Source: Candidatus Foliamicus sp. (lineage in GTDB: Bacteria > Pseudomonadota > Gammaproteobacteria > Steroidobacterales > Foliamicaceae). Taken from it: a stretch of 64,000 bases of DNA. The position numbers and the translations under genes are program-made. Of this stretch, positions 28,566-56,535 are shown one piece after another. The notes beneath the pieces are model-generated. The model saw nothing but the letters and a program-made list of their open reading frames with translations. It searched no databases and was not told the origin of the DNA. Position 1 is the first letter of the stretch. Every line of letters starts with the position of its first letter. The DNA is taken from the NCBI GenBank assembly GCA_965249285.1, contig OZ252226.1, positions 1,788,302-1,852,301 of the forward strand, given 5' to 3'.

Positions 28566-29375
28566 CTAAAGGGTCAGCCATCCGAGTGGTTCGAATGCCA
28601 GCAGCGCCAGCAGGGGCGCCGTGGCCAGGCTGCTGTCCATGCGATCGAGCATGCCGCCGTGGCCGGGCAGCAGTCGGCCGCTGTCCTTGAGCCCAGCACG
28701 CCGCTTGAACAAGCTTACGGTCAAATCTCCGAGCATTGATACGCCTCCTACCGCCAGGCCCGCCAAGGTCCAATACAGCGCCGATTGCCCCAGATAAAAG
28801 GATGCGCCAAGGCCGGCAATGGTCGCCGTCGCCAGGCCTCCGTACGCGCCTTCGACGGTCTTGCCGCTGCTGAGCACAGGCGCCAGCGGCCGCCGGCCCA
28901 GCAATTTGCCGATAACGAAAGCGCCGGTGTCGGCGGCGCCCACCAAGAGCAACAAAATCAGCAGCAGATCGGCCCGGCCGGCTCCGATCAGCGCCAGAAC
29001 CGCCAACCAGGCAGGCGCCAATCCCAGCAGGCCGCAAACCGCAACCGCGCCGTTGCTCATCGATGCTCCCGAATTGCGCACAACGACTAACGCCAGGCAC
29101 CACCAGGCCACACCCAGGACCATGACCGCATAGACGGCAGGATAAGGCGGCGGTTTGGCCACCGGCAAGGCCAGCGCCAGGGCGAACAGGAGGATTGCAA
29201 CAGACCTCGGCAGCATTCCGTCGATGCCGGCCATCCGCAACCATTCACGCCAGCAAAGCAGCAGCACCAGGCCGATCAAGGTAAGTTTCACGGTTACGGG
29301 CACAAGGCTGGTGGCCACCACCGCCGCGATGAGCGCGGCGGCCGTCAGCAACCGGGTCGGCAAGAATTTGCTCAT
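28566..29375 (-). CDS. cdsA: Phosphatidate cytidylyltransferase
   Basis: Polytopic; DTGAF, SSGKTVEG, KRRAGLKDSG.LLPGHGGMLDRMDS. Confidence 0.95.
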   Translation of the reverse strand: MSKFLPTRLLTAAALIAAVVATSLVPVTVKLTLIGLVLLLCWREWLRMAGIDGMLPRSVAILLFALALALPVAKPPPYPAVYAVMVLGVAWWCLALVVVRNSGASMSNGAVAVCGLLGLAPAWLAVLALIGAGRADLLLILLLLVGAADTGAFVIGKLLGRRPLAPVLSSGKTVEGAYGGLATATIAGLGASFYLGQSALYWTLAGLAVGGVSMLGDLTVSLFKRRAGLKDSGRLLPGHGGMLDRMDSSLATAPLLALLAFEPLGWLTL

Positions 29376-31603: not shown

Positions 31604-32472
31604 CGATGCTCCCGTAGCTGGGCTTCGACCTCTTCGGCAAGATCGCTGACGGGGCGTTCCACGCCCTCGCCCACTTCAAAGCGCACAAATCCATGCACCC
31701 GGGCCTTGTGGGTATTGAGCAGCGCGCCTACCTTGAGCTTGCTGTCACGCACGAAGATCTGCCCGCTCAGGCAGATGCCATCGAGAAACTTCCGCAAGCG
31801 GCCTTCCACCATGCGCGCCAGAATTTCCGGCGGCTTGCCGGAGTCGGCTGCCTGGTCAGTAAGAAAAGCGCGCTCACGCTCCACGACTTCGGCCGGGACA
31901 TTGTCGGGAGAAACATGCTGCGGGCGCATTGCCGCGACATGCATGGCTATATTCCTGCCCAGTTCAGGGTCACCGCCCTCCATGTCCACCACCACGCCGA
32001 TCCGTTGGTTGTGGACGTAGATGGATGCACCGCCCTGTGGCTCCATGCGCCGAAAACGGCGCACGCTGATGTTCTCGCCGATCCGCGCCACCGCGTCCTG
32101 CCGGGTCTGCTCCAGGGACTGCCCGTCCACTTGCAGCGCCAGCAGGGCATTGAGGTCCTCGGGCGCCTCATCCAGCACGGTTCGGGCCACGCAAGCCGCA
32201 TATTCGCGAAAGTCCTGGCGCCGGGCCACGAAATCGGTTTCGCAATTCACCTCGGCGATAGCAACCGCGCCCGAATCTTCGGCCACCGCAATCACTCCTT
32301 CCGCGGCAGCCCGGCCGGCCTTCTTCTCGGCCGCCGCGGCGCCTTTCAGGCGCAACAGGTTGCGCGCGGCCTCCGCGTCGCCGTTGGTCTCGGTCAACGC
32401 GCGCTTGCAGTCCATCATCCCCGCGCCGGTCGATTCCCGCAGGACCTTAACCTGGGCGGCGGTGATCGCCAA
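31600..32472 (-). CDS. tsf: Elongation factor Ts
   Basis: [41 protein letters not shown]; TTG start. Confidence 0.98.
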
Positions 32473-32475
32473 GAC

Positions 32476-33744
32476 CTAGTCCGCCTTTTCGGCCGGAGCC
32501 GGAGCTTCCTCGGCGGCGGGCGGGGGGGCCGGAGCCGGAGCTTCCTCGGCGGCGGGCGGGGGGGCCGGAGCCGGAGCTTCCTCGGCGGCGGGCGGGGGGG
32601 CCGGAGCCGGAGCTTCCTCGGCGGCGGGCGGGGGGGCCGGAGCCGGAGCTTCCTCGGCGGCGGGCGGGGGGGCCGGAGCCGGAGCTTCCTCGGCGGCGGG
32701 CGCAGGGGCCGGGGCCGGGGCTTCCTCGGCGGCGGGCGCGGGGGCCGGAGCCGGAGCTTCCTCGGCGGCGGGCGGGAGGGCCGGAGCTGGAGCTTCCTCG
32801 GCGGCGGGCGGGGGGGCCGGAGCCGCGCCCGCCCCGACCCTACGCGCTTTCGGCGCCACCGGCGGCGCGGCTTCGGCAGGTCTGGCGTCGCGGTCCTCCC
32901 GCTCGCGGGCTACCGCAGCCGTGCGTCGCGGCATGCGCCGCGTTACGCCCCGCAAACGCGCCGGCGTCTTGGCCCGCGACCGGGGACGATCCGATTTGGC
33001 AATCGGCTTGCCGGATTCGTCCAGCTCCACGAATTCGTCGTCGCCCAGGGAAATCTCGGGCACCTCCTCGCGTCCCTGCATGATTGCATCGGCGATACCG
33101 CGCGCGTACAGCTCAGCGGCTCGTATGGCGTCATCGTTGCCGGGAATCATGTAGTCCACGTCCTGCGGCGAACAGTTGGTGTCCACCACGGCGGCCACCG
33201 GAATGCCGAGCTTCTTGGCTTCGTTCAGGGCAATGTGCTCGTGCTCCAGGTCGATGATGAACACCGCATCCGGCAGCGAGTCCATGGCGCGGATTCCGCC
33301 GAGGGAGCGCTTCAGCTTTGCCAGCTCGCGCTTGAGTCCCAACGCTTCCTTCTTGGTGAACCTCTCGCGCATGGTCCCTTCTTCGAGGGCTTCCAGCTCT
33401 TCCAGGCGAGCGATTGACTTCTTGATGGTCTTGAGATTGGTGAGCGTGCCGCCGAGCCAGCGATGACTGACGTACGGCATGCCGCAACGCGTAGCTTCGT
33501 TGCGTATGGCATGTTGCGCGGCCCGCTTGGTACCCACGAACAGCACGGTGCCGCGCTGGGCCGCCACCGATCGCACGAACTCACAGGTCTTCTGGTAGAG
33601 CGGAACGGTCTGCTCCAGATCGATGATGTGGAGCTGATTGCGTTCGCCATAGATAAACGGCGCCATTTTCGGGTTCCAGTGCCTGGCCCGATGCCCGAAG
33701 TGCACGCCCGCATGCAACATTTCACGTACGGTGATTTCCGCCAA
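32476..33744 (-). CDS. rpsB: 30S ribosomal protein S2 with long Pro/Ala/Glu C-terminal extension
   Basis: [29 protein letters not shown]; TTG 33744 follows SD GGAG. Confidence 0.97.
32491..32826. repeat. 36-bp coding tandem repeat, 9 units ([12 protein letters not shown])
   Basis: CTTCCTCGGCGGCGGGC recurs nine times at 36-bp period. Confidence 0.95.
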
Positions 33745-33978: not shown

Positions 33979-34749
33979 ATGCAGGTCACCATCAAGTCCG
34001 GCGAAGAGCGGCAGCGCATGCGCGTGGCAGGCCGGCTTGCGGCCGAAGTGCTGGACATGATCGCAGCGCATGTGCGCCCCGGCGTTACCACCGACGAGCT
34101 GAACCGGATCTGTCACCAATACATTACCGAGCAACAGCAGGCCATCCCCGCCCCGCTCAACTACCGTGGGTTTCCCCGTTCCATCTGCACCTCCTTGAAC
34201 CAGGTCGTTTGCCACGGGATACCCAGCGACCGCAAGCTGCGCGACGGCGACATGCTCAACATCGATATTACGGTGATCAAGGACGGCTTTCATGGCGACA
34301 CCAGCCGCATATTTCATGTCGGCCGGCCGAGCATAAAGGCGCGGCGACTGGCAGGGATAACTTTTGAAGCCATGTGGGCGGGCATTCGCCAGATTGCGCC
34401 GGGCAAGCGCCTGGGAGACATCGGCCATGCAATCCAGACGCTGGCCGAATCCAAGGGCTTGAGCGTGGTGCGCGAATACTGCGGCCACGGGATCGGCCGG
34501 GTGTTCCACGAACCACCCAACGTGCTGCACTACGGCGAGCCGGGCACCGGCATTGGCTTGCGCGAAGGCATGACCATTACGGTGGAGCCGATGCTTAACG
34601 AAGGCCGCCCGGAGACCCGGTTACTGCCGGACGGGTGGACGGTAGTGACGCGTGACCGGAAACTGTCGGCGCAATGGGAGCATACAGTGCTGGTTACCTC
34701 CGAGGGATACGAAGTCCTTACGCTGGGAGCGGGGCCGGTTGAGCCCTGA
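33979..34749 (+). CDS. map: Type I methionine aminopeptidase
   Basis: VCHGIP, NIDITV, GDTS, GHGIG..FHE, TVEPM, SAQWEHT. Confidence 0.97.
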   Translation: MQVTIKSGEERQRMRVAGRLAAEVLDMIAAHVRPGVTTDELNRICHQYITEQQQAIPAPLNYRGFPRSICTSLNQVVCHGIPSDRKLRDGDMLNIDITVIKDGFHGDTSRIFHVGRPSIKARRLAGITFEAMWAGIRQIAPGKRLGDIGHAIQTLAESKGLSVVREYCGHGIGRVFHEPPNVLHYGEPGTGIGLREGMTITVEPMLNEGRPETRLLPDGWTVVTRDRKLSAQWEHTVLVTSEGYEVLTLGAGPVEP

Positions 34750-37396
34750 GCAAGCAACCGTCGACCAGAACGCCGCGCTCAGCGCGGCTTTGCGGGCCGG
34801 CGAGCTGGACGCGTATCGCGAACGCCTGCGGGAGCAGGCCGCCCGCATACGCGGCTGGTTCGAAGAGGGCGAAAGAAGCACTGCCCAGCTGCTGAAGTTA
34901 CGCTCTACCCTGCTGGACGAATTGCTGTGCGAGGCATGGCGGCTGCACGCCGGTCCGGCATTGCGGTCGGCCGCCCTGCTGGCGGTCGGGGGTTACGGGC
35001 GCGAAGAAATGTACCCGGCCTCCGACGTGGACGTACTGGTGCTGTTGCCGCACGGCTATTCACGCAGCGCAAGAACCGAGGTCGGCGGTTTTCTGGCGTT
35101 TCTGTGGGACATGGGACTCAAGCCCGGCCATGGCGCCCGCACCGTGGGCGAGTCGCGTGACCAGGCCCGTGCCGACGTAACGATCATGACGGCGCTGCTG
35201 GAAGCCCGGCTTCTGACCGGCTCCGAGCGGCTGTTCGCCCAACTGAAGAAAGCGATCAATGCGCGTAGCGTGTGGCCCTCCTGGCAGTTTTACCGGGCCA
35301 AGGCCCGGGAGCAAAGCGCCAGGCGCCGCGAACATGGCGATACCGCTTCCATCCTGGAACCCGACGTCAAGAACGGGCCCGGCGGACTACGGGACCTGCA
35401 CACCGTGAACTGGATCATGCTGCGGCGTTTCGGCTCGGCAACGCTGGACACGTTGGCGGAACGGAAGCTGATATCCGCCGATAAGTTCGCAGGCCTGCGC
35501 CGGGCCGGGGATTTTCTCTCGCGCGTGCGCTTTGCCCTGCACCTTATCTCCGGCCGCATGGAAGACCGGCTGCTGTTCGAACACCAAAAGCAGCTTGCCG
35601 CCATTTTCGGATACCTGGATCAGACCGGCAACCGCGCCGTAGAGCAATTCATGCAGCGCTACTACCGAACTACCCGCAGCATTTCCCTGTTCCGTGAGAT
35701 CGCGACTCAACGCCTGGGCGACATCATCACACCGCAGCGCGCCGGCGCCAGGCGCCTGAACGCGCGCTTTATGCTGCGCAACGGCTGCCTGGACACGCGC
35801 CGAGAGGACCTCTTCAGCGTCTTGCGGCGGGCGGTACTGGAACCGTTTCTCCTGCGGCAGCGGCAACCGGAAATCCGCGGTTTCAGCGCCGCGCTGATTG
35901 AGCGCCTGATCGAAGCCGTGCCGAATATCGATGCCGGGTTCCGGGAAGACCCGAAGATCCGCCGCATGTTCATGCAAATCCTGTCCGCGCCGCCGGACGC
36001 CCCCAGCCAGCTTGAGGCCATGAACCGCTATGGCGTCCTGGGCGCCTACATCCCGGAATTCGGGCTGATTACCGGCCGGATGCAGTATGACCTCTTTCAC
36101 AGCTATACGGTGGATGCGCACATTCTGCGGGTGGTCGGAAACCTCCGCCGTTTCGGCCTTCGGGAGGGCCAGGAGCAGGATCCGCGGCTGGCGAAAATCA
36201 TGCAAGGCATCGACAATCCGACAGTCTTGTTCATCGCCGGGCTGTTTCACGATATCGCCAAGGGACGCGATGGAGATCACTCGGAACTGGGTGCTTCGGA
36301 CGCCCAGCGGTTCTGCTCCAGGCACGGCTTGAACCCTCGTGAGTCGGCATTGGCGGCGTGGCTGGTGCGCCATCACCTGCAACTGTCGATGACCGCGCAA
36401 AAGAAGGACGTGTACGATCCGGCGGTTGTACGTGAGTTCGCCCGCCTGGTGGGCGACCAGGTCCATCTCGATCACCTGTACCTGCTAACGGTTGCCGACG
36501 TGCGCGGCACCAACCCGAACCTGTGGACGGCCTGGAAGGCGCGGGTGTTCGAAGATCTGTACCGCCAGACGGAACAAGCGCTGCGGATGAAAATCGAGCA
36601 CCCCAGCGGGACCGAGGAACTTCTGGCGGAACGCGAGCAGGCCGCGCTACTGGAATTGCGCTGCCGGGGGTTGAATGAAGACGAGGCACGGGCGCTCTGG
36701 AGCCGGTTCCCGGAAGACTATTTCTGGCTTTTCCGCGACGACGAAATCGTGTGGCACACCCAGGCCCTGCAGTCGGCCGGTAAGCAGGCCGGGGGCTTTC
36801 TGGTCGCAACCAGGGCCGATTCTCCGGACGGCAACACGGCGATATTGGTGCACGGCCCGGCCGCCGTTCACCGGTTCTTCATTACCTGTTCGGTGCTGGA
36901 CGCCCGGGGACTCAACATTCTTGATGCGCGCATCCTGCCCTCCGGCAACAAACTCAGCCTTGCCCAGTACCTGGTGGTGCAGCGGGACGGCGCGCCGCTG
37001 CGCGACCAGCAGCAGCTGGATCTGGTCTGTGATGCCGTGCGTAAATCGCTGGCCCGGGCGAAACCGCCGGCGCGGCCGGTGCGCCGCAAGCTGCCGCGGC
37101 GTTTGCGGGCCTTCGATGTAGGGGTGAAGGTCAGCTTCCGGAGCGACCCGCGCAAGCGTCATACGGTGATGGAACTGGTCGCTGCCGACTGTCCCGGACT
37201 TCTCGGCCTGGTGGGCGGCATCCTGACGCGCCGCCACATCGGGGTGCGTAGCGCGAAGATCGCCACATTCGGGGAGCGCGCCGAGGACGTGTTTCACCTG
37301 ACCAATGCCGATCGCAAGCCGCTGTCGGAACAAGAGCGGGATGCGCTGCTGGCGGCGCTGACCGCCGAACTACTGGATGACACTAGCCTGAAATAA
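34739..37396 (+). CDS. glnD: [PII] uridylyltransferase/uridylyl-removing enzyme
   Basis: AVGGYGR, SDVDVL, LEPDVKNGPGGLRD, HSYTVDAH, LFHDIAKG, two ACT domains; TTG 34739 overlaps map. Confidence 0.97.
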   Translation: MSPEQATVDQNAALSAALRAGELDAYRERLREQAARIRGWFEEGERSTAQLLKLRSTLLDELLCEAWRLHAGPALRSAALLAVGGYGREEMYPASDVDVLVLLPHGYSRSARTEVGGFLAFLWDMGLKPGHGARTVGESRDQARADVTIMTALLEARLLTGSERLFAQLKKAINARSVWPSWQFYRAKAREQSARRREHGDTASILEPDVKNGPGGLRDLHTVNWIMLRRFGSATLDTLAERKLISADKFAGLRRAGDFLSRVRFALHLISGRMEDRLLFEHQKQLAAIFGYLDQTGNRAVEQFMQRYYRTTRSISLFREIATQRLGDIITPQRAGARRLNARFMLRNGCLDTRREDLFSVLRRAVLEPFLLRQRQPEIRGFSAALIERLIEAVPNIDAGFREDPKIRRMFMQILSAPPDAPSQLEAMNRYGVLGAYIPEFGLITGRMQYDLFHSYTVDAHILRVVGNLRRFGLREGQEQDPRLAKIMQGIDNPTVLFIAGLFHDIAKGRDGDHSELGASDAQRFCSRHGLNPRESALAAWLVRHHLQLSMTAQKKDVYDPAVVREFARLVGDQVHLDHLYLLTVADVRGTNPNLWTAWKARVFEDLYRQTEQALRMKIEHPSGTEELLAEREQAALLELRCRGLNEDEARALWSRFPEDYFWLFRDDEIVWHTQALQSAGKQAGGFLVATRADSPDGNTAILVHGPAAVHRFFITCSVLDARGLNILDARILPSGNKLSLAQYLVVQRDGAPLRDQQQLDLVCDAVRKSLARAKPPARPVRRKLPRRLRAFDVGVKVSFRSDPRKRHTVMELVAADCPGLLGLVGGILTRRHIGVRSAKIATFGERAEDVFHLTNADRKPLSEQERDALLAALTAELLDDTSLK

Positions 37397-37525
37397 CCCT
37401 GGGAGTTTTCGCAGCAGGCGCCGCTGCGCTGACGCTCAGGGAACCCCCTGGGCACGAGGGCATCCTGCCCTCGTCGAGGGCCTGTCCCCGACCCTGATCG
37501 GGGAGCTGGAAGCCCTCGTTCCCGG
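37397..37525. repeat. Composite REP-like element, family A, copy 5, between convergent glnD and hda
   Basis: Same accessory module, REP arms and insert as copy 4. Confidence 0.9.
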
Positions 37526-38815
37526 CTAACGGGCGGAGCGCCCCTCCACTATTCCCTCGCGCAATGCCAGGCGCACGAAGGGCACGGTCAACTGCTTGCT
37601 GCGGCTGGCCGCCAGCGCCGCCAGCCGGTCCACCAGGTTGAATACATCGCTGGGGTTGCGCTTCACGCGCCGCATCAGGAAACGCGCGGTAGCTTCGGGC
37701 AGGGCAATTCCCCGGCTGCGCATCCGCAACTGCACCGCCTCCAGCCGCTCTTCATCGGTTAATGGCAACAGCTTCCAGATCTGCCCCGAGGCCAATCGCG
37801 TGCGCAGGTCGTCACGCTGAAATCCCGCACCCGCCGGAGTGCCGGCCGCGGCCAGCACCAGGCGCGCACCGCGTCTCTCCAACTCCCGGCAAAGAACGCC
37901 CATGGCCTCTTCCAGCGCCGGCGCTCCCGCCAGCCGGCCGGCATCGTCAATGCACAAGAGTTCAATCTTCCCCAGGGAATCCAGGGCGTCGGGTTTGAAT
38001 CCGGCGTGCGCGGGCAGGTAGGCCGAGGATAGCCCACCGTCGGTCGCCGCTCTCATCGTCGCCAGCAGCAAATGGGTCTTGCCGGTGGCCGGCGCGCCCC
38101 ACAACCAGAAAGGCGGTCCGCCATCCTGATCGATGAAGCCCCGCAGCGCCGACACCACATCGGCGTTGCTGCCGTTGTAGAAATTCTCGAATACGCAGGG
38201 GTCCTCGCGGCTCACCTCCAATTCCAATTGCCGCTTGTCCCCGCTGGCGGAGACGGTGTCTTCAATCTTGCGTTGGGCGGCCAGCCTGGTGCCGGAGAGA
38301 ACGTAGTCCACCCCGCTGAGTACCGCCAGCAGCAGGGCCAGGGCGCCGCCGATCTGAATCCAGTCCACCGGCAGAATTCCAGGGAATGCCTGCGCGGCAA
38401 TCACCGCGACTCCCAGGCAGATCTGCAGGACGGTGTTCATCCGGCTTACCGTGGACGGACGCGGGCGCAATTCGCCCCGGAGTAAGCGGAAGGCCTGCCA
38501 GCCCCCGACGATTACCAGGTCGCGGGCGATGACCACCGCGGCCAGCCAGGCAGGAATGTGGGAAAGTGCCGCCAGCGTCACGTAGACACTGGCCAGCAAG
38601 ACCTTGTCCGCCATCGGATCCAGCACCGACCCAAGGTAACTGTCCAGACTCCAGCGTTTGGCCAGAAAACCGTCCAGCCAGTCGGATAGTGCGGCAACCG
38701 CCAGCAGCAGCAGGGCCTGGCCGTAGCGGCCGCCCGCCAAAGCCACCACGATGACCGGCGCAAGCAGCAGCCGGAACACGCAGATCAGGTTCGGAATGTG
38801 CCTTGTAACGCTCAT
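37526..38815 (-). CDS. hda: Fusion of a CDP-alcohol phosphatidyltransferase (aa 1-~180) and DnaA regulatory inactivator Hda (aa ~196-429)
   Basis: N-half: IPNLICVFR, SDWLDGFLAKR, GSVLDPMADK. C-half: QLELEV, FENFY, GAPATGKTHLL, LCIDD, DLRTRL. No stop between the halves. Confidence 0.88.
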   Translation of the reverse strand: MSVTRHIPNLICVFRLLLAPVIVVALAGGRYGQALLLLAVAALSDWLDGFLAKRWSLDSYLGSVLDPMADKVLLASVYVTLAALSHIPAWLAAVVIARDLVIVGGWQAFRLLRGELRPRPSTVSRMNTVLQICLGVAVIAAQAFPGILPVDWIQIGGALALLLAVLSGVDYVLSGTRLAAQRKIEDTVSASGDKRQLELEVSREDPCVFENFYNGSNADVVSALRGFIDQDGGPPFWLWGAPATGKTHLLLATMRAATDGGLSSAYLPAHAGFKPDALDSLGKIELLCIDDAGRLAGAPALEEAMGVLCRELERRGARLVLAAAGTPAGAGFQRDDLRTRLASGQIWKLLPLTDEERLEAVQLRMRSRGIALPEATARFLMRRVKRNPSDVFNLVDRLAALAASRSKQLTVPFVRLALREGIVEGRSAR

Positions 38816-39810
38816 GATCCGGCCTTGGCCAGCTTGAAAGGTATCCCCAATGAGTCCAAAGCGTCCCGCAAAGGCGCTTCGGCGGTTCGGGAAGTGATTC
38901 GTAAAGTTAGCGAATCACGCGTGGCGCTGTCCACCCTCCACTCGCGCACCGCTTGCAGGGCATCCAGCCTTGACTGAAGATCCTCATAGGTCTGCACATC
39001 GCGGACTGGAGCCACCACCAGCAGGTACGAACGGATCGGTCCCTGGGTAGCCATAAAGCGCGCCGCCAGCATGTCGGTTGCAAGGTGCACTGCTTCGGCT
39101 GTGTCGCTCACCCACACCCTGCGCCACAGCCCGTTCTCGCGCAAGCTCCACTCGATGTCGTCCAGGGTGCTGGGAACCGCCACCCGGCCCAGTATGAACA
39201 ATTCATCGTCCACTTGCGGCAGGCACTGCGCGAAACCGGTCCACAGGTCCTCGGCGCATTGTTCCGCCGCGACCCCGTCGGTCCCGGGCGGAAAGTCGAT
39301 TTCAATGCCGCGCAAAGCCGACACTTCCTCAAGGGTCCGTTCAAGAGCATCGCTCAACACAATACGCAGATCCACCGTTGTTGCGGAGGCTTCGACGGAT
39401 TGGGCCGGCCTGAACAACCAGCGCTCGCCATCGTTAATCACCAGCCACAATGAAAGCTGCGGGCGTTCCCCCTCCCAGATGCTCTCTCCGGCCTGCTCCA
39501 GGACCTGGCGCACCACGGCATCGTCGAATTCCGCTTCCAGGCGGGTACCGTCAATGACGCGATACTGCCGCACGATACTCAACGCCGGCGGAAAGCGCTC
39601 CGTTAGATCGGCGGCGCTGCGGCGCCCGGTCACGCGCACCAGCAAGCGTCCCAGCGCGTCCTGCGCGGCAGTTGCCAGGCTGGCCTGACTCGAATCGCGC
39701 AGCGGCACGGTGGACCGAAACGGGGCCTCGGTTGCAATAGCTCCGGACGCGAGAAGCAGCGTCAAAGCCAAAGCCTGTGGCACGATGCGCTGGAGCATTG
39801 AAAAAGGCAT
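38812..39810 (-). CDS. DUF2066-family exported protein
   Basis: Signal peptide, ALGRLLVRVTG, FDDAVVRQVLEQAG..W...RP.L.LWL; divergent from purM as in other gammaproteobacteria. Confidence 0.75.
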   Translation of the reverse strand: MPFSMLQRIVPQALALTLLLASGAIATEAPFRSTVPLRDSSQASLATAAQDALGRLLVRVTGRRSAADLTERFPPALSIVRQYRVIDGTRLEAEFDDAVVRQVLEQAGESIWEGERPQLSLWLVINDGERWLFRPAQSVEASATTVDLRIVLSDALERTLEEVSALRGIEIDFPPGTDGVAAEQCAEDLWTGFAQCLPQVDDELFILGRVAVPSTLDDIEWSLRENGLWRRVWVSDTAEAVHLATDMLAARFMATQGPIRSYLLVVAPVRDVQTYEDLQSRLDALQAVREWRVDSATRDSLTLRITSRTAEAPLRDALDSLGIPFKLAKAGS

Positions 39811-39851
39811 TATAGGATGCGCAGTTTCGCACGGTGACGCCAAGAGAAGCA

Positions 39852-40871
39852 ATGAAATTGAGCAAACCGATCACCTATCGGGCAGCGGGCGTGGACCTTG
39901 AGCGGGGCGCGGATGTTGTGCGCCGAATCGCTCCGCTTGCGCGCGCCACCCATCGCCCGGGGGTGCTGGGCGGGATCGGCGGATTCGGCGGACTATTCGA
40001 GGCGCCGATTGACCGCTACCAAAACCCGGTGCTGGTGGCGGGTACCGACGGCGTGGGGACCAAGCTGAAGCTGTGCCTGGACGCGGGCCGCCTGGATGCG
40101 CCGGGGGTGGACCTGGTTGCGATGTGCGTGAATGACGTGCTTGCCCAGGGGGCCGAGCCGTTGTTTTTTCTCGACTACTGCGCCGCCAACCGGGTTGACC
40201 CGGACCGTCTGGAACAAGTGATCAAGGGGATCGCCGAGGGCTGCAAGGAAGCCGGCGCCGCCTTGCTCGGGGGCGAAACGGCGGAACTGCCCAATACCTA
40301 TGTCGACGATCGGTTGGAACTGGTCGGCTTCTGCGTCGGCGTCGCCGAGCGGGACCGCCTCGTGGACGGAAGCGCCGTGAAAGAAGGCGATGTGCTGCTG
40401 GGTCTGGCATCGTCCGGTCCACATTCCAACGGCTTTTCCATCGTCAATAACGTGATTGCGCGCGCCGGTGGATTACAGGCGCTGCCACGCGAGCTCATCA
40501 ACGCCCTGTGCGAACCGACGCGGATCTACGTCCGCTCAGTACTCGCGCTGGCGCAATCGGGCCGGCTCAACGCCGTTGCCCATATCACCGGTGGCGGCCT
40601 GCCCGAAAACATGGCCCGGATTCTTCCCCGGGGCCTCGGCGCCCGAATCGACACCGGCGCATGGCCCTGGCCTGAAGTGTTTGGCTGGTTGAGCCGCACG
40701 GGGCCGGTCGAGCGCGAGGAGATGCTGCGCACCTTCAATTGCGGCATCGGGATGGTGCTGGCGACCCCGCCGGAGGAAGCTAGCGGAGTCATGGAAAGCC
40801 TGGCGAACGCCGGCGAGCAGGTCTGGAACATCGGCGCGGTTGAAGGCGGCGGCGGCGTGACGCTTACCTGA
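39852..40871 (+). CDS. purM: Phosphoribosylformylglycinamidine cyclo-ligase
   Basis: YRAAGVD, GTDGVGTK, GGETAE, HSNGFS, HITGGG, TFNCGIG. Confidence 0.98.
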   Translation: MKLSKPITYRAAGVDLERGADVVRRIAPLARATHRPGVLGGIGGFGGLFEAPIDRYQNPVLVAGTDGVGTKLKLCLDAGRLDAPGVDLVAMCVNDVLAQGAEPLFFLDYCAANRVDPDRLEQVIKGIAEGCKEAGAALLGGETAELPNTYVDDRLELVGFCVGVAERDRLVDGSAVKEGDVLLGLASSGPHSNGFSIVNNVIARAGGLQALPRELINALCEPTRIYVRSVLALAQSGRLNAVAHITGGGLPENMARILPRGLGARIDTGAWPWPEVFGWLSRTGPVEREEMLRTFNCGIGMVLATPPEEASGVMESLANAGEQVWNIGAVEGGGGVTLT

Positions 40872-44047: not shown

Positions 44048-44058
44048 TCGGTGAAGAG

Positions 44059-44424
44059 GGGCAAGCCGGCCGGTAAGCCGGGTTCTGTCGAGGGCAATCA
44101 TTCATCTAGGACCGCCGTCGCCGGCGGCCTCAAGCAGCTTACCCGGAAGCGCGCGCGGACATACGCATTGCTCCCCTATTTAGCCTTGCTCCGAACGGGG
44201 TTTACCCTGCCACGGCTGTTGCCAGCCGCGCGGTGCGCTCTTACCGCACCATTTCACCCTTACCCGGGCCCGCTAGGGGCGCCGGGCGGTATATTTTCTG
44301 TGGCACTTTCCGTAGGCTTGCGCCTCCCAGGCGTTACCTGGCGTCCCGTCCGCCGGAGCCCGGACTTTCCTCCCGCCGCACCGGAAACCCGGTAACGGCC
44401 GGCGATTGCCTGGCCGGCTTGCCC
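44059..44424 (-). ncRNA. rnpB: RNase P RNA (type A)
   Basis: Minus strand has GAGGAAAGTCCGGGCTCC, AGTGCCACAGAAAA, GGGTAAACCCC and ACAGAACCCGGCTTA; the ends form a 13-bp P1 helix. Confidence 0.97.
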
Positions 44425-45895: not shown

Positions 45896-47574
45896 TCCAC
45901 GGGCGGATTGAAGAACGTCTGCGAACGGCTGTCCGCCCAGCAGACGTCCACTCGATCGACGCTCGCTCGCTCGCCCAAACCGAAAATCGGCGCGGGCTCA
46001 TCGACCGAGTTGTAGCCGGTGGAGGAGAAGATTTCGCGCCACTGGATCAGGTCGCCGGACACCACGCGAATGCGAGCATTCAACCTCTGCCCTTCAAGGC
46101 GCACCTTGATCCAGTGATTGCCGTTGCCCTGGTTCAGCCATAGAAAGTTACGCTGCGGGTCAGAGAGCATCTCGCCGCGGTTGTAGAAGGTTCGGGCGGT
46201 GCCGACGATGTCGGCGAAACCGTCGCCGTTGACGTCACCGCTGGCAACGCCGGCGCCGATGCTGAAGCCCACCGCTCCCGATCCCTCGGTCACGTCGCTG
46301 AAGGTGCCGTCGCCGTTATTGCGAAGCAGTGTATTGGTGGCCGGCTCAAAGGCGATGTAGAACTGCACAGACGGCGGCAATTCTTCCACGATGTCGTTGA
46401 TCAGCACGTTAGAGGGGCCGCCGTTACTGACATAGATGTCAAGCCAGCCGTCATTGTCGTAGTCCGCCATCGTGCAGCCACGGGCGCCGCCCAAGTCCCC
46501 GGCGCCCGAAGCAAGCGAAATGTCGGTAAAGCCGGGCGCGCCGGTTTCCGCGTAGTCGTTGCGAACCAGTCGATTGGCCTGGTCCGCGTTGGGCAGATAG
46601 GCGTCGATATCTCCATCGTTGTCCACATCTCCCAGGCAGACGCCGTTGGCGTTGCCCGGGTTGAGAAAAGCCCAACCCGAAGGCGGCGTTCTGGACCGTG
46701 TGATATCGGCGAATTTGCCGCCGCCCTGGTTCATGTACAGCACGCTGGGCCCGCCTTCGTTCGGAGCAAGCAGATCCAGGTCACCGTCAAAATCGAAATC
46801 GAACCAGCCCGGCGACCCCTGGCTGTTGGCCTCTTTCACGCTCTTGAGTAGAACCACGCCCGCGTCTTGTGTCGTGTCCTCGAATTTGCCGTTACCCAGG
46901 TTGCGGAACAGCGCCTGGTCCACGTCGTAATCGGCTGAACGCCACACCAGGTCCAGCCACCCGTCGCCGTCGTAGTCGCCGAAGCCTACGCCCCCGGACG
47001 TGGCGGTAATGCCTTTATTGGACTGGTCGTCGTCCACCCCCCTGCGCATCAATCCCGCTTCGCCGGTAACTTCTTCGAATTGCGCGTCGCCGCTGTCGGC
47101 CAAAAGGTTTCGGTACAGCGTTACAGGCGGATCGTAGCCGGCCCGGCTGCCCGACTGCATGTTGGCCACGACCAGATCGTCGTCACCATCAAGGTCGTAG
47201 TCGCCGAATGTGATGCCCCTGCCCAGTCCACCCTCGTTGGTTGCACCGCGAGCCTGCGCCACGTCAGTGAAGTAGCCGCGGCCGTCGTTCTCCCACAAGC
47301 GGTTGCGGAAATCCAGACCGGCCGTTCCACTATCGTTGTTGGTGACGTAGATATCCGCGTCACCGTCGCCGTCGTAGTCGTTGAAGGCCACTCCTGCGCC
47401 GTCAAGGCCCGTGTCGGCGATGCCGCGCTCTTCCGCTTGCTCCACAAAGCGAATCGGCGCGGGCGCTTGGGCCTCGGGCGTGTCAGTCACACAGGCCGCG
47501 GCCAGCAATCCGGCAACCAGCGCGGGTCCAAGTCGTGCACAAAAAAGACCCTGGGAACGAGGGTGCGCAGCCAT
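45541..47574 (-). CDS. FG-GAP/CRTAC1-like beta-propeller lipoprotein with ASPIC/UnbV domain
   Basis: Lipobox LLAAAC, seven D-x-[DN]-x-D-G-x-x-D repeats, GNHWIKVRLEG and FGLG. Confidence 0.85.
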   Translation of the reverse strand: MAAHPRSQGLFCARLGPALVAGLLAAACVTDTPEAQAPAPIRFVEQAEERGIADTGLDGAGVAFNDYDGDGDADIYVTNNDSGTAGLDFRNRLWENDGRGYFTDVAQARGATNEGGLGRGITFGDYDLDGDDDLVVANMQSGSRAGYDPPVTLYRNLLADSGDAQFEEVTGEAGLMRRGVDDDQSNKGITATSGGVGFGDYDGDGWLDLVWRSADYDVDQALFRNLGNGKFEDTTQDAGVVLLKSVKEANSQGSPGWFDFDFDGDLDLLAPNEGGPSVLYMNQGGGKFADITRSRTPPSGWAFLNPGNANGVCLGDVDNDGDIDAYLPNADQANRLVRNDYAETGAPGFTDISLASGAGDLGGARGCTMADYDNDGWLDIYVSNGGPSNVLINDIVEELPPSVQFYIAFEPATNTLLRNNGDGTFSDVTEGSGAVGFSIGAGVASGDVNGDGFADIVGTARTFYNRGEMLSDPQRNFLWLNQGNGNHWIKVRLEGQRLNARIRVVSGDLIQWREIFSSTGYNSVDEPAPIFGLGERASVDRVDVCWADSRSQTFFNPPVDQELLARAPDAAFQSPGATIQMTMANTSSAACAPATSTNGAHGVAGLNSAPPTTAATMMPTEPNMLSMPITAPRSRAGASWPTSAMLLIMAPAMAMPRSAKAGNMRRSSGEPTKYIEP

Positions 47575-49727
47575 TACGCCGCCTCCGCAGCAGCGCCGAC
47601 AGCCGACGGCGGCAGCTTGAACGGCAGTTTGCGCAGGCGCTTGCCCAGCGCTGCGAAAACCGCGTTGCCTACGGCAGGCGCAACCGGTGGTACGCCAACC
47701 TCGCCGATTCCTCCGATCGGGGCGCCGCTATTGAGTAGGTGCACCCGGATTTCCGGTGTGTCGTTCATGGTCACCATCCTGTAGGTGTCGAAATTCCGCT
47801 CCACCACGCCGTTCTCGTCGAGATGAATGTCCCCGTGCAAGGCCGCGGTCAGACCGTAGATGATGCCGCCGCTGATCTGCGCTTCAAGTGTTGCCGGATC
47901 AACCGCCAGACCGCAATCCACGGCGCAGTCAATACGCTCCACACGAAGCTGCCCGCCATTTGTTGAAACCCGCGCCACCTGCGCCACGTAGGTCCCGAAA
48001 CTAGCCGAACAGGCAATGCCCCGGCCCGTGCCCGGCGCAAGCGGAGTCCCCCAGCCGGACTCCTTGGCCGCCAGCGCCAGCACCGGCGACATTCGTGACT
48101 CCGCCGGCAGCAGGGATTGCCGGAAAGCGTACCGATCGCGCCCCGCGGCATGAGCCAGCTCGTCAACGAAAGTTTCGACAAAAAAGCAATTGTAGGAATG
48201 GGCGACGGAGCGCCAGAAGCCCAGGTTGACCGGCGCATGGGGACTGGAATGGGTCACTTCGACGTTCGGCGCCTGGTACGGAAAGTCCACGGCTCCCTGC
48301 AAGGCAGTGGGGTCCGCCTTGAGTCCAATGCCACGCATCTGCCTTAGCAAGGACGGGGCGGCGATGTGCTGTCGCCAGGCAATCAGCGCGCCGGACTGGT
48401 CCAGCGCCGCATCCATACGACTCAAGGCGGCCGGGCGGAAATAGCCATGCTGCATATCGTCCTCGCGGGTCCACATCACCTTGACCGGACGGCCCGCATA
48501 TTGCGAGGCCAGCACCGCCTCGGCAACGTAATCGGTTTCCAGGCGGCGGCCGAAACCGCCCCCCAGCGGGAGGGTGTGTATGCGCACGGCTTCGATGGGC
48601 AAGCCGGTGAGCTTCGCGGCAACCCTTTGAGCCTGCGTCTGCACCTGGGTGGGCGCCCAGATCTCGCAGCGATTGACATCCACGTCCGCGGTGCAGTTCA
48701 TCGGCTCCATCGTGGCATGGTGCAGAAACGGAACTTCGTACTGCGCGGTGACGCGGCGCACTGAAGGACCTTGCAACGCCTGGTTGACGTCGCCCTCGCT
48801 GCGCGCCGGGGGAACGGGGTCATAAAGGGCCATGGCCAGCTCGCGCCGGAAACCGGCTGCGGGGTTCTGCGCGCCTGATGGGTCTCCCTCGCCGGCCGGA
48901 ATCCAGGCAACCTCAAGCGCGGCCCGGGCCTGCTGCGCCTGCCAGAAATCACCTGCCAGCACTACGACGCCCGGCGGCCGATGCTGGTCGCCCGGTATTT
49001 CGAACACATCCGCAACGCCCGGGAGCCCAAGGGCAGCTTCGCTTTCGTAGACCGGGCGAAGTGGAACCGAACCGGGCCACGGAGACCGAGCGATAAGAGC
49101 TGTCAACTGCCGGGGCAGCCGCACGTCGATGGCATAACCCTGGGCGCCGAGGGCCTTGGACGGAATATCCGGGCGCGGAAATGACTTGCCCACCAGGCGG
49201 AATTGCGACGGATCCTTAAGAGGAGGAGCGGCCGGCGGCTCCAGTTGCGCCGCGGCGTAAACCAGCGAGCCGTAGCTCAAGCGGACCCCGGTAGCACGAT
49301 TGACGACTTCGCCTTCCTGACAAACGCATTCGGAGAGGCTCATGCCCCACTCCACCGCGGCTGCCGTTCGGAGCATTTCCCTTGCCGAGGCGGCAGCTTC
49401 CCGCAACAGGTCGTAGGAGCCGCGTATCGATGAACTGCCGCTGGTGGCCATGCCCCGCGGCCAGCCCGCGGGGTTATCGGGCATGCGCGCAAGCACCATG
49501 CTTTCCCAGGGCGCTTCCAGTTCTTCGGCGACGATCCGCGCCAGCGCCGCCGGACTGCCCTGCCCCATGTCCGTTCGGTCACACACAAACGACACTTCGC
49601 CGGAGGGGGAAATTGTTATCCAGGCGCTGGGACGAAACTTCTCCGCATCACTGGATCGGCCAGCCGGCAGATACACGGCCAGCGTTAATGATCCGCCCGC
49701 GGCGACGAAAGCCCGGCGGGTCAGCAT
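47574..49727 (-). CDS. Xanthine dehydrogenase-family molybdopterin subunit (IorB-like)
   Basis: LTRRAF N-terminus, DMGQG, HATMEPMN, GGGFGRR, WRSVAHS, GIGEVGVPP. Confidence 0.9.
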   Translation of the reverse strand: MLTRRAFVAAGGSLTLAVYLPAGRSSDAEKFRPSAWITISPSGEVSFVCDRTDMGQGSPAALARIVAEELEAPWESMVLARMPDNPAGWPRGMATSGSSSIRGSYDLLREAAASAREMLRTAAAVEWGMSLSECVCQEGEVVNRATGVRLSYGSLVYAAAQLEPPAAPPLKDPSQFRLVGKSFPRPDIPSKALGAQGYAIDVRLPRQLTALIARSPWPGSVPLRPVYESEAALGLPGVADVFEIPGDQHRPPGVVVLAGDFWQAQQARAALEVAWIPAGEGDPSGAQNPAAGFRRELAMALYDPVPPARSEGDVNQALQGPSVRRVTAQYEVPFLHHATMEPMNCTADVDVNRCEIWAPTQVQTQAQRVAAKLTGLPIEAVRIHTLPLGGGFGRRLETDYVAEAVLASQYAGRPVKVMWTREDDMQHGYFRPAALSRMDAALDQSGALIAWRQHIAAPSLLRQMRGIGLKADPTALQGAVDFPYQAPNVEVTHSSPHAPVNLGFWRSVAHSYNCFFVETFVDELAHAAGRDRYAFRQSLLPAESRMSPVLALAAKESGWGTPLAPGTGRGIACSASFGTYVAQVARVSTNGGQLRVERIDCAVDCGLAVDPATLEAQISGGIIYGLTAALHGDIHLDENGVVERNFDTYRMVTMNDTPEIRVHLLNSGAPIGGIGEVGVPPVAPAVGNAVFAALGKRLRKLPFKLPPSAVGAAAEAA

Positions 49728-49773: not shown

Positions 49774-49864
49774 TGGCGGAGAGGGTGGGATTCGAACCCA
49801 CGAAGGGCTTCTAACCCTTACTCCCTTAGCAGGGGAGCGCTTTCGTCCGCTCAGCCACCTCTCC
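49774..49864 (-). tRNA. tRNA-Ser(GCT)
   Basis: GGAGAGG acceptor, CT-GCT-AA loop, long variable arm, GTTCGAATC, encoded CCA. Confidence 0.96.
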
Positions 49865-52768: not shown

Positions 52769-52843
52769 TGGCGTCCCCAAGGGGATTCGAACCCCTGTTG
52801 CCGGCGTGAAAGGCCGGTGTCCTAACCTCTAGACGATGGGGAC
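52769..52843 (-). tRNA. tRNA-Glu(TTC)
   Basis: GTCCCCA acceptor, CT-TTC-AC loop, GTTCGAATC, CCA. Confidence 0.96.
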
Positions 52844-52853
52844 GCCGGGGTTC

Positions 52854-52929
<76 letters not shown>

Positions 52930-56460: not shown

Positions 56461-56535
56461 GGGCGATTAGCTCAGGGGGAGAGCGCTGCCTTCACACGGC
56501 AGAGGTCGCTGGTTCAATCCCAGCATCGCCCACCA
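56461..56535 (+). tRNA. tRNA-Val(CAC)
   Basis: GGGCGAT acceptor, TT-CAC-AC loop, GTTCAATC, CCA; divergent from gltX. Confidence 0.95.

Follow-up and report, generated by a model that had tools for sequence, protein, structure and literature searches.

Can an enzyme of phospholipid synthesis and the replication regulator Hda be parts of one natural protein and, if so, how did that protein arise and what would it do? Hda-mediated RIDA, regarded as the main brake on chromosome re-initiation in E. coli and its relatives, has to our knowledge been studied only as a soluble, clamp-bound process. The in vivo regulation of DnaA by acidic phospholipids, cardiolipin especially, has been debated since the late 1980s, and the debate persists largely because the lipid enzymes had no known genetic or physical link to the replication machinery. 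We analyzed a 64-kb stretch of Candidatus Foliamicus DNA (the window), in which an initial annotation, made from the letters alone, had proposed such a fusion and knew of no described precedent. The literature that we searched bears this out: we found no description of Hda fused to a CDP-alcohol phosphatidyltransferase, and no papers on Foliamicus. The architecture is new, while its parts are already known.

One reading frame encodes a transferase, a linker and a complete Hda

We found the proposed single, uninterrupted 429-aa open reading frame in full; it lies on the (-) strand, which the initial annotation left unstated, and a check of the sequence located every motif at the residues given for it (Table 1). 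A six-TM CDP-alcohol phosphatidyltransferase (residues 1–181) is followed by a short linker (182–195) and a complete Hda (196–420). The first domain matches Pfam CDP-OH_P_transf (E 3.5e-27, 96 bits against a cut-off of 22, residues 6–153). Its catalytic motif, D45-W-L-D48-G49-F-L-A52-K53...G62-x3-D66-x3-D70, is located on TM2-TM3. We scored residue conservation over 23 fused sequences and, for the transferase motif, also over 17 unfused orthologues. The motif is invariant in the former and conserved in the latter, except that position 53 is either K or R.

The Hda domain was claimed to be full, and it is. It covers positions 1–225 of the 226 in the NCBIfam Hda profile TIGR03420 (E 2.5e-53, residues 196–418), narrowly missing the equivalog cut-off (180.9 versus 194.8 bits) despite this near-full coverage, and the lid matches Hda_lid (E 1.1e-13, 51.4 bits against a cut-off of 27). 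By sequence, its PDB matches are 3BOS (1.7e-37) and 5X06 (7.9e-35). The clamp-binding-type motif QLELEV sits directly upstream of the AAA+ core and aligns residue for residue with the N-terminal QLSLPV of Shewanella Hda (3BOS), so that a motif that is N-terminal in free Hda is internal in the fusion. Across the fused sequences, Q196 and L199 are invariant and L197 nearly so; in Walker A, G240, A241, P242, T244, G245, K246 and T247 are invariant; in Walker B, L286, L287, C288 and D290 are invariant and D291 nearly so. The arginine-finger region DLRTRL aligns to DLVSRM of 3BOS, with R338, T339 and R340 invariant. No second pgsA-like or hda-like gene was found within the 64-kb window.

Table 1. 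Features of the fusion gene and its neighbors, in window positions
Feature	Residues	Positions	Strand	Basis or detail
Whole fusion ORF, 429 aa (CDP-alcohol phosphatidyltransferase + linker + Hda)	1–429	37526..38815	(-)	ORF list, Pfam, NCBIfam
Six-TM CDP-alcohol phosphatidyltransferase domain, CAP-type, probably cardiolipin-synthase-like	1–181	38273..38815	(-)	PF01066
Catalytic motif D45xxD48G49xxA52K53...G62xxxD66xxxD70-K71	45–71	38603..38683	(-)	Sequence checked
Acceptor-pocket signature P120-S-T-V-S124-R125-M-N127-T128-V-L-Q131	120–131	38423..38458	(-)	Alignment to 7DRJ
Variable polar linker, former C-terminal tail of the transferase	182–195	38231..38272	(-)	RKIEDTVSASGDKR
Complete Hda domain, AAA+ core + lid	196–420	37556..38230	(-)	TIGR03420
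Clamp-binding-type motif QLELEV	196–201	38213..38230	(-)	Alignment to 3BOS
Walker A GAPATGKT	240–247	38075..38098	(-)	Sequence checked
Walker B LLCIDD	286–291	37943..37960	(-)	Sequence checked
Box VII / arginine-finger region DLRTRL	336–341	37793..37810	(-)	R340 at 37796-37798
Hda lid domain	354–417	37565..37756	(-)	PF22688
DUF2066 gene, upstream of the fusion		38812..39852	(-)	PF09839, E 2.7e-19
purM, divergent, marks the ancestral hda locus		39834..40871	(+)	tblastn; Pfam AIRS/AIRS_C in family loci
glnD (uridylyltransferase), convergent with the fusion		34652..37396	(+)	Pfam GlnD domains in family loci

The fusion is a maintained feature of its lineage

The initial annotation suggested seeking the same architecture in other genomes, where it proved to be recurrent and under purifying selection. 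It is present in about 35 protein clusters (427–432 aa, 77–95% identity, 98–100% coverage), all of which carry both CDP-OH_P_transf and Hda_lid, many of them on Mb-scale contigs. The window's own 90% cluster has 24 members; the 15 members listed are all 429 aa long, several of them on contigs of 1–3.9 Mb, and the exact protein of the window is also on record on a 3.2 Mb contig. In a search among 1.84 billion representatives, the fusion was limited to a single 50%-identity cluster, and Candidatus Foliamicus is the only organism name attached to it. The fusion lineage is one of uncultured marine Gammaproteobacteria (Candidatus Foliamicus and relatives), in which the fusion is permanent. Over seven family sequences with a dS of about 1, both domains are strongly constrained (dN/dS of 0.15 in the transferase and 0.11 in Hda), while the linker reaches 0.69 and the C-terminal tail 1.0.

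A frameshift error in sequencing or assembly could falsely join two adjacent genes, and artefacts do exist at this locus: two calls (P0067 and P0036) are garbled across several frames, one contig (L089) has many fragmented genes, and another locus (L088) is a single 1-nt indel apart from a fused relative. However, dozens of independent assemblies, several of them with Mb-scale contigs, and about 35 clusters show the same in-frame junction; the linker indels among family members are whole codons (-1 to +2); each domain runs intact to the junction; and the errors observed at the locus split or scramble the fusion ORF and never create it. The artefact explanation is effectively refuted, and we consider it extremely improbable. 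We hold with near certainty that the fusion is one real polypeptide, maintained by selection in the Candidatus Foliamicus lineage.

No independent fusion was found elsewhere among the 1.84 billion representatives, the other long matches being frameshift-garbled calls or unrelated architectures. Four candidates were rejected: P0067 (428 aa), a gene call garbled across several frames; P0036, which belongs to the family but is frameshifted; P0120, an Hda with a low-complexity N-terminal extension; and P0180, in which the transferase is duplicated in tandem. It had also been considered that all close relatives might keep two genes. Instead, about 35 clusters are fused, and neither of the two close relatives that seemed unfused was accepted as a native two-gene state. 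The first (P0203, at L088) has a 1-nt deletion in an A-run when compared with a 97.4%-identical fused strain; the Hda ORF that follows the deletion is devoid of the clamp motif, and the same contig carries a split glnD as well. The second (P0204, at L089) lies on the contig with many fragmented genes.

The fusion joined an existing gene pair

In all six family loci compared, which come from independent assemblies, the gene order is purN-purM <> DUF2066 - fusion <- glnD - map, with DUF2066 directly upstream of the fusion on the same strand. Within the window, the TGA stop of DUF2066 overlaps the ATG of the fusion (ATGA at 38815-38812; sequence GGATCATGAGC). The true start of glnD is probably later than 34652, because map, placed by tblastn, ends at 34746. 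A 574-aa ORF in the same region (31693-33417, (+)) was rejected as the antisense shadow of tsf and rpsB.

The flanks of the fusion are also those of unfused hda loci (purN-purM <> DUF2066 - transferase - hda), establishing orthology by synteny. At the locus with the closest unfused Hda (L002), the order is DUF2066, a 193-aa CDP-OH_P_transf gene and hda. Among the matches listed, hda or hdaA lies just downstream of a transferase paralogue in 62 of 80 loci from other species, which belong to the Alpha- and Gammaproteobacteria, and the two genes are fused in none of the 80. The identity of HdaA in the alphaproteobacterial loci is secured by E values of 1e-49 to 1e-80, and in most related loci purM, searched by tblastn with the window ORF, lies upstream in divergent orientation. 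At six loci (L006, L019, L022, L028, L070 and L080), the stop of the transferase and the start of hda overlap as ATGA or TTGA, and an unrelated AI-2E transporter gene lies between the two in at least 13 gammaproteobacterial loci. Since the transferase and hda are conserved and often overlapping neighbors, the fusion is one of an existing gene pair and not a new combination.

These arrangements suggest a simple route. The ancestral order in the Alpha- and Gammaproteobacteria is purM <> (DUF2066) - CAP-type phosphatidyltransferase - (AI-2E transporter) - hda, with the transferase stop and hda start abutting or overlapping (ATGA) in many species. One small indel in the C-terminal tail of the transferase, which is poorly conserved, would suffice to lose the stop and bring hda into frame; the old tail became the linker.

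The junction carries no conserved internal start

Three details of the junction had been put forward. The out-of-frame TTGA does exist in the window (codons I184/E185), but it is absent from the other family members and is therefore without significance. The claim that splitting the ORF needs two indels fails, as at L088 a single 1-nt deletion in the linker was sufficient. The GTG at 38311, proposed as an internal start, is codon V169, a position that varies among V, T, M, A and S across the family; it is therefore not a conserved internal start.

A related possibility is that the working Hda is a free protein, released by internal translation initiation or by proteolysis of the linker, and that Hda is not tethered in vivo. 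The L197 codon is TTG or ATG in six of seven family members, one of which (L001) has a GGAG 8 nt upstream of it; the E. coli hda itself starts at a non-ATG codon (CTG); and the linker, disordered towards its C-terminal end in the AF2 model, could be accessible to proteases there. However, neither a start codon nor a Shine-Dalgarno sequence is conserved in the linker across the seven family sequences, the L197 codon being TTA in L086, and initiation at L197 would delete the invariant Q196 of the clamp motif. The variable V169 offers no better start, and no sigma-70-like promoter was found inside the gene; simple promoter and terminator scans of 37300-40100 found nothing. We judge release of a free Hda to be very unlikely.

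Hda is predicted to face the cytoplasm at the membrane

We characterized the topology and fold of the protein by prediction. The transferase is predicted to have six TM helices with both termini inside (K+R count of 14.7 inside versus 1.1 outside), and no hydrophobic segment was found in residues 196–429. Hda is thereby predicted to be cytoplasmic, about 20 residues from the membrane, and a membrane-tethered Hda, as first proposed, is the straightforward reading of this topology. Using an 81-sequence mixed alignment, AF2 returned a model with a pLDDT of 84.5, compared to 49 with the 23 fused sequences alone. The transferase helices in this model span residues 3–27, 31–55, 60–83, 89–113, 122–143 and 150–191, and only residues 192–204 (pLDDT <50) and 426–429 are disordered. 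Foldseek superimposed the Hda domain on the Hda chain 5X06_F (TM 0.88, rmsd 2.3 A) and the transferase on S. aureus PgsA (SaPgsA), 7DRJ (TM 0.75, rmsd 2.9 A). The pTM is 0.49, and the model therefore defines no contact between transferase and Hda.

The transferase is probably cardiolipin-synthase-like and not a PgsA

The initial annotation read the N-terminal domain as PgsA-like. That it is a bona fide PgsA, and not an enzyme of the cardiolipin-synthase type, would fit with pgsA TIGR00560 being the top-scoring NCBIfam transferase model (E 2.4e-26, residues 6–174), with SaPgsA being the sole solved homologue by sequence, and with part of the electropositive glycerol-3-phosphate pocket. In SaPgsA this pocket comprises Lys83, Arg110, Arg118, Lys137 and Tyr181 (PMC8640168), of which Lys83, Arg110 and Tyr181 are kept as K71, R98 and Y171. 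Against this reading, the TIGR00560 score of 93.4 bits falls below the curated cut-off of 109.1, as do those of the unfused orthologues (83–101 bits), and PRK10832 scores 57 against a cut-off of 304. Moreover, Lys137 of SaPgsA binds the phosphate of glycerol-3-phosphate, and the K137A mutant loses activity (PMC8640168); in the alignment to 7DRJ, this residue is replaced by Asn127, which is invariant in the fusion family. Arg118 aligns to Gln107, in a loop where the alignment is less certain.

The acceptor pocket separates the named relatives into two classes. Those named PgsA have Lys at site 127 and Gly at site 124 (15 of 16 in each case), whereas those named CLS by JGI have Asn at site 127 (21 of 22) and Ser at site 124 (19 of 22). 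The window protein is Ser124/Asn127 and matches the CLS-named class, the JGI names being automated annotations. The closest unfused relatives are likewise labelled 'cardiolipin synthase (CMP-forming)' by JGI, again an automated label. The family profile scored human CRLS1 at 127 bits and PgsAs at about 89, a ranking that is a lead only, as the CRLS1 and E. coli PgsA sequences used are unverified. NCBIfam ClsA (NF053678) scores 75.3 bits against a cut-off of 240 and aligns to the N-terminal half alone. A sequence search of the PDB, extended to an E of 10, yielded no structure of a CAP-type cardiolipin synthase. A CLS_cap clade in proteobacteria was inferred by Tian et al. 2012 (PMC3378450).

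By these signatures, the transferase is probably not PgsA, and we regard a bona fide PgsA as unlikely. Chemistry of the cardiolipin-synthase type, as suggested by the pocket residues, has about an even chance of being correct.

Proposed action of the fused protein

The protein is predicted to cross the membrane six times, beginning and ending in the cytoplasm, and its catalytic site is intact; a flexible linker of about 14 residues leads to a full Hda, whose clamp-binding motif starts about 20 residues past the membrane boundary. The N-terminal domain would still make an anionic phospholipid from CDP-diacylglycerol; from the acceptor-pocket signature, cardiolipin (PG as acceptor, CMP-forming) appears more probable than phosphatidylglycerol phosphate. 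The Hda domain would still carry out RIDA, the clamp-dependent hydrolysis of DnaA-ATP, only at the inner face of the membrane. DNA-loaded clamps must then come within a few nanometres of the bilayer, and tethering should restrict the access of Hda to them. We consider it fairly likely that Hda is functional while tethered.

The fusion may be real and yet functionally neutral: two unrelated housekeeping functions of an operon, the lipid enzyme and Hda, would have been joined by a tolerated indel and would each work on its own, the gene order being due to co-expression or genomic inertia and not to a mechanistic tie with DnaA. The near-free evolution of the linker (dN/dS 0.69), the lack of a defined contact between the domains in the AF2 model, the single origin of the fusion among the 1.84 billion representatives and the unrelated transporter gene that separates the pair in at least 13 loci are all consistent with neutrality, and E. 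coli has hda without this transferase. The conserved operon could indeed reflect co-expression alone. However, a soluble regulator that needs DNA-loaded clamps has been kept anchored to the membrane over a dS of about 1 and in dozens of lineages, with both halves strongly constrained, and pairing of the genes in 62 of 80 species among the matches listed, across two proteobacterial classes, is above expectation for unrelated neighbors. We view neutrality as a somewhat unlikely alternative.

We lean towards the explanation in which a single polypeptide, formed from an ancestral gene pair, likely acts as proposed above. The analysis establishes the fusion itself, its conservation, the integrity of its domains, its topology, its synteny and its non-PgsA signature; the enzymatic product, RIDA in the tethered state and functional coupling to the DnaA nucleotide cycle are what we infer for it. 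By 'Rosetta stone' logic, the deep conservation of the gene pair together with its fusion suggests that the separate proteins cooperate and perhaps physically associate, although a mechanistic coupling of the transferase to the DnaA cycle seems doubtful at present. A bolder extension, which we offer as a long shot, is that the pair, a single gene in Foliamicus and two adjacent or overlapping genes in most Alpha- and Gammaproteobacteria, would be a dedicated membrane module for the DnaA nucleotide cycle. The CAP-type cardiolipin synthase would make a local patch of the lipid most tied to DnaA nucleotide release, bound or fused Hda would hydrolyse DnaA-ATP there, and the inactivation and reactivation of the initiator would both be organised at the membrane. 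The CAP-type clade was inferred to be the bacterial sister of the mitochondrial cardiolipin synthase (Tian et al. 2012, PMC3378450); if the membrane module were real, the ancestor of the mitochondrial enzyme would have been linked to replication control.

A lipid-synthase–Hda protein, naturally fused and selectively kept, would supply a link between lipids and replication, as would the wider conservation of the gene pair, and the lipid-DnaA question becomes approachable in tractable unfused species (Pseudomonas relatives, Caulobacter and rhizobia). Our analysis also points to a candidate CAP-type cardiolipin synthase that is widespread in proteobacteria but uncharacterised; such an enzyme could be the source of the residual cardiolipin that is reported for double mutants of PLD-type cls (PMC4966929).

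Comparison with known systems

The fusion shares with Hda/HdaA (E. coli 5X06, Shewanella 3BOS) the AAA+ core and lid fold, Walker A and B, the Box VII arginine, a QLxLxL-type clamp motif right before the AAA+ core and a locus next to purM. Characterised Hda proteins are soluble, have about 230 aa and carry the clamp motif at the extreme N-terminus, whereas in the fusion a six-TM enzyme of 181 residues and a linker of 14 come first and the motif lies inside the chain.

The N-terminal domain resembles CAP-type ('eukaryote-like') cardiolipin synthases (EC 2.7.8.41) in its CDP-alcohol motif, its length of about 180 aa and its six TM helices, but differs in scoring far below the NCBIfam ClsA cut-off (75 versus 240). 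We know of no CAP-type enzyme that is fused to a replication protein, and we found no biochemical characterisation of the purM/hda-linked proteobacterial transferase subfamily in the literature that we searched. With S. aureus PgsA (7DRJ) the domain has in common the fold, the catalytic motif and the equivalents of Lys83 and Arg110; it departs from it in the Asn that replaces Lys137, the Gln aligned to Arg118 and a score below the pgsA cut-off.

In E. coli, the anionic lipids PG and cardiolipin promote the conversion of inactive ADP-DnaA to active ATP-DnaA, and Hda converts ATP-DnaA to ADP-DnaA (reviewed in PMC3645759). In that crosstalk between DnaA and acidic phospholipids, Hda and the lipid enzymes are distinct proteins, and neither a physical nor a genetic linkage between them is known. 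In the fusion, by contrast, an anionic-lipid-type synthase and Hda form one polypeptide, and in many other proteobacteria their genes are adjacent.

A fused transferase-Hda gene maintained by selection

The minus strand of the window encodes, without interruption, a 429-aa protein joining a CDP-alcohol phosphatidyltransferase (residues 1-181) to Hda (residues 196-420) through a linker. The initial annotation had described this single ORF, omitting its strand, and each motif that it listed is found at the residue it named. The N-terminal half matches CDP-OH_P_transf in Pfam (residues 6-153, E = 3.5e-27) and the NCBIfam pgsA model TIGR00560 (residues 6-174, E = 2.4e-26). The C-terminal half matches Hda_lid in Pfam (residues 354-417, E = 1.1e-13) and aligns to profile positions 1-225 of 226 in the NCBIfam Hda equivalog TIGR03420 (residues 196-418, E = 2.5e-53); its only departure from Hda membership is a score just under the cut-off (180.9 versus 194.8 bits).

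The initial annotation had proposed looking for this architecture in other genomes. Among 5.8 billion proteins searched, it recurs in 35 clusters (427-432 aa, 78-95% identity, 98-100% coverage), all with both domains and all inside one 50%-identity cluster. That cluster (P0035) is the only one with the architecture in an exhaustive HMMER search of 1.84 billion 50%-identity representatives. Four other candidate fusions were rejected, the database proteins P0067 and P0036 as frameshift-scrambled gene calls and P0120 and P0180 as unrelated architectures. The sole organism name on the fusion proteins is Candidatus Foliamicus (Gammaproteobacteria, Ca. Foliamicales). They are already public under single-domain names ('DnaA/Hda family protein' or 'CDP-alcohol phosphatidyltransferase family protein'), and our literature search found no paper on the fusion or on transferase-hda linkage. 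The fusion is a new domain architecture built of known kinds.

The window protein's 90% cluster has 24 members, several on contigs of 1-3.9 Mb; all 15 of the members listed are 429 aa long, and the identical protein is recorded on a 3.2 Mb contig. The gene order purN-purM <> DUF2066-fusion <- glnD-map is common to the window and six loci from independent assemblies. Seven family members, whose synonymous divergence is close to 1, give dN/dS values of 0.15 in the transferase domain, 0.11 in the Hda domain, 0.69 in the linker and 1.0 in the C-terminal tail, and linker indels between members are multiples of a codon.

Only two relatives look split, and in both the cause is an error or a recent lesion. 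At locus L088 (4001-5289), a 1-nt deletion in the linker A-run, relative to a 97.4%-identical fused strain, yields an 'Hda' ORF that begins VSRED and lacks the clamp motif, and glnD is broken on the same contig; the contig of locus L089 carries many fragmented genes. Both are long-read-style contigs of close relatives in which single-base indels split the fusion, glnD and purM, and their gene calls entered the protein database as the seemingly unfused P0203, P0204 and P0322. Together, the clusters, conserved loci, dN/dS, whole-codon indels and explained splits establish that the fusion is a real gene maintained by selection.

Origin from neighbouring genes

The nearest unfused Hda (42% identity) lies at locus L002, in the order purN-purM <> DUF2066-CDP-OH_P_transf (193 aa)-hda. 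Using the N-domain aligned with its unfused homologues, we surveyed a single genome from each species, kept the best 80 loci (L003-L082), and scored downstream hda with a profile that also picks up divergent alphaproteobacterial HdaA. None of the 80 is fused. An hda/hdaA gene lies just downstream of the transferase in 62: directly adjacent in about 28, within 1.5 kb in about 30 (often with an AI-2E-family transporter gene between), slightly more distant in two and on the opposite strand in two. Most of the 80 have a divergent purM upstream; the 18 without hda are chiefly from lineages outside Alpha- and Gammaproteobacteria. Alpha- and Gammaproteobacteria both retain the arrangement purM <> (DUF2066)-CAP-type transferase paralogue-(AI-2E transporter)-hda/hdaA (for example L034:4998-6308, L063:5001-6250 and L021:4998-7329). 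Polyphosphate kinase follows hdaA in L034, the one alphaproteobacterial locus examined for its next gene. In L016 (Sedimenticola selenatireducens) and L031, hda is convergent and immediately 3' of the transferase, a local inversion that retains adjacency.

In directly adjacent loci, the transferase stop and hda start abut or overlap (ATGA in L019, L022, L028 and L070; TTGA in L006 and L080; 1 nt in L049), and Hda begins M-(x)-Q-Q-L-P. Consequently, the fusion's invariant Q196 directly follows the former transferase C-terminal tail. One small indel in that tail would suffice to create the fusion; L088 represents the reverse event. The fusion might be a tolerated accident in a co-expressed operon, with no mechanistic meaning; we regard this main rival as rather unlikely. 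The ancient pairing, combined with the fusion, suggests a functional, possibly physical, partnership between transferase and Hda.

The stop of DUF2066 overlaps the fusion's start, and the two look translationally coupled from their sequence. Many gammaproteobacterial relatives also have DUF2066 5' of the transferase, so the module may include it as a third partner.

The surrounding window

Around the fusion lie ordinary genes of the chromosomal core (dnaE, lpxB, lpxD, bamA, rseP, cdsA, uppS, frr, pyrH, tsf, rpsB, map, glnD, purMN, dcd and RNase P RNA), and the window is not a mobile element. The gene cdsA sits in the usual pyrH-frr-uppS-cdsA-rseP-bamA cluster, and its proximity is probably ordinary synteny with no specific link. 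The lpxB protein either has an N-terminal extension or begins downstream of the longest-ORF start. The 574-aa ORF was rejected as a gene, being an antisense shadow. The true glnD start is probably later than 34652 (+), since the longest ORF overlaps map. These two ORFs exemplify the long spurious reading frames that this genome of 64% GC can contain.

Positions of features in the window
Feature	Position	Strand	Remark
lpxB ORF, 534 aa	20887-22491	-	LpxB domain from residue 158 only
cdsA (CDP-diacylglycerol synthase)	28566-29375	-	makes the transferase's donor substrate; about 8 kb from fusion
tsf	31615-32472	-
574-aa ORF	31693-33417	+	high GC3; no Pfam match; antisense to tsf and rpsB
rpsB	32932-33744	-
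map	33979-34746		overlapped by longest glnD ORF
Fusion	37526-38815	-	429 aa
DUF2066 gene	38812-39852	-	function unknown; ATGA overlap with fusion
RNase P RNA, bacterial class A	44058-44421	-	full length; 313 bits
FG-GAP/ASPIC-UnbV repeat protein, 677 aa	45541-47574	-	adjoins oxidoreductase subunit
Molybdopterin-binding oxidoreductase subunit	47574-49727
tRNA-Ser(gct)	49774-49864
tRNA-Glu(ttc)	52769-52843
tRNA-Ala(ggc)	52854-52929
324-aa ORF	53020-53994	-	no Pfam match
tRNA-Val(cac)	56461-56535

Hda domain and membrane geometry

Both halves of the fusion are intact. The Hda domain can be aligned over its full length with Hda proteins of known structure (Shewanella Hda 3BOS, E = 1.7e-37; the Hda chain of 5X06, E = 7.9e-35), with its QLELEV and DLRTRL aligned to QLSLPV (N-terminal) and DLVSRM of 3BOS. 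An AF2 model from an 81-sequence alignment (pLDDT 84.5) superposes its Hda domain on 5X06_F (TM 0.88, rmsd 2.3 A). Family-invariant residues include Q196 and L199 in the clamp motif, G240, T244, G245, K246 and T247 in Walker A, D290 in Walker B, and R338 and R340 in the arginine-finger region.

The model's membrane domain comprises six helices (3-27, 31-55, 60-83, 89-113, 122-143 and 150-191), the last reaching beyond the membrane to about residue 191. The family average for Lys+Arg is 14.7 on the side predicted to be cytoplasmic, against 1.1 on the opposite side, and no hydrophobic segment was found past residue 196, placing both membrane-domain termini in the cytoplasm. Hda is thereby predicted to lie on the cytoplasmic membrane face, its place of action. 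Residues 192-204, including the clamp motif, are modelled as disordered, as expected of an extended clamp-binding peptide; the pTM of 0.49 leaves the relative orientation of the domains unset. The anchored Hda would carry out clamp-dependent hydrolysis of DnaA-ATP (RIDA), for which a DNA-loaded clamp would have to approach the inner membrane to a few nanometres.

The proposal that an internal start could yield free Hda was not supported. Family linkers have no conserved start codon or Shine-Dalgarno sequence, the suggested GTG at 38311 is V169 and is not conserved, and no sigma-70-like site was found inside the gene. Six members have TTG or ATG as the L197 codon and one has TTA, and translation from this codon would lose the invariant Q196. 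The evidence is against internal initiation; proteolytic cleavage in the linker is possible.

The transferase compared with known enzymes

The initial annotation's PgsA/cardiolipin-synthase-like N-domain stands as to its intact catalytic CDP-alcohol motif, invariant in the family, but the domain does not appear to be a canonical PgsA. It shares the fold of S. aureus PgsA (SaPgsA, 7DRJ; TM 0.75, rmsd 2.9 A), yet its pgsA score is 93 bits (unfused orthologues, 83-101) against a curated cut-off of 109. In SaPgsA, Lys83, Arg110, Arg118, Lys137 and Tyr181 hold the glycerol-3-phosphate head-group phosphate, and K137A reduces activity (PMC8640168); Lys137 corresponds to the family's invariant Asn127, and Arg118 aligns with Gln107.

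We are evenly divided on whether this transferase is, by its sequence, a CMP-forming cardiolipin synthase. Its nearest unfused relatives (89-139 bits) bear the JGI name 'cardiolipin synthase (CMP-forming)', with PgsA names on weaker matches only. Proteins named cardiolipin synthase have Ser at site 124 (19/22) and Asn at site 127 (21/22), those named PgsA have Gly (15/16) and Lys (15/16), and the window protein has Ser/Asn. Tian et al. (2012) inferred a CLS_cap clade in diverse proteobacteria, separate from PgsA (PMC3378450). As no more than a lead, the family profile scores human CRLS1 at 127 bits and PgsAs at about 89, and CRLS1 also has the P-x-x-I-S-K-x-N-T-x-x-Q signature. However, the relatives' names are automated annotation, the NCBIfam ClsA model gives 75 bits, far short of its 240-bit cut-off, and our PDB search found no structure of a CAP-type cardiolipin synthase, all of which count against this assignment.

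The fusion is confined to one lineage and kept by selection, and its parent genes have been kept as neighbours in two proteobacterial classes. Its transferase would still produce anionic lipid, probably cardiolipin. A possible link to DnaA control is attractive, because acidic phospholipids help turn inactive ADP-DnaA into active ATP-DnaA, the reverse of what Hda does (PMC3645759), and because some cardiolipin, made by an unidentified synthase, persists at trace level in PLD-type cls double mutants (PMC4966929).
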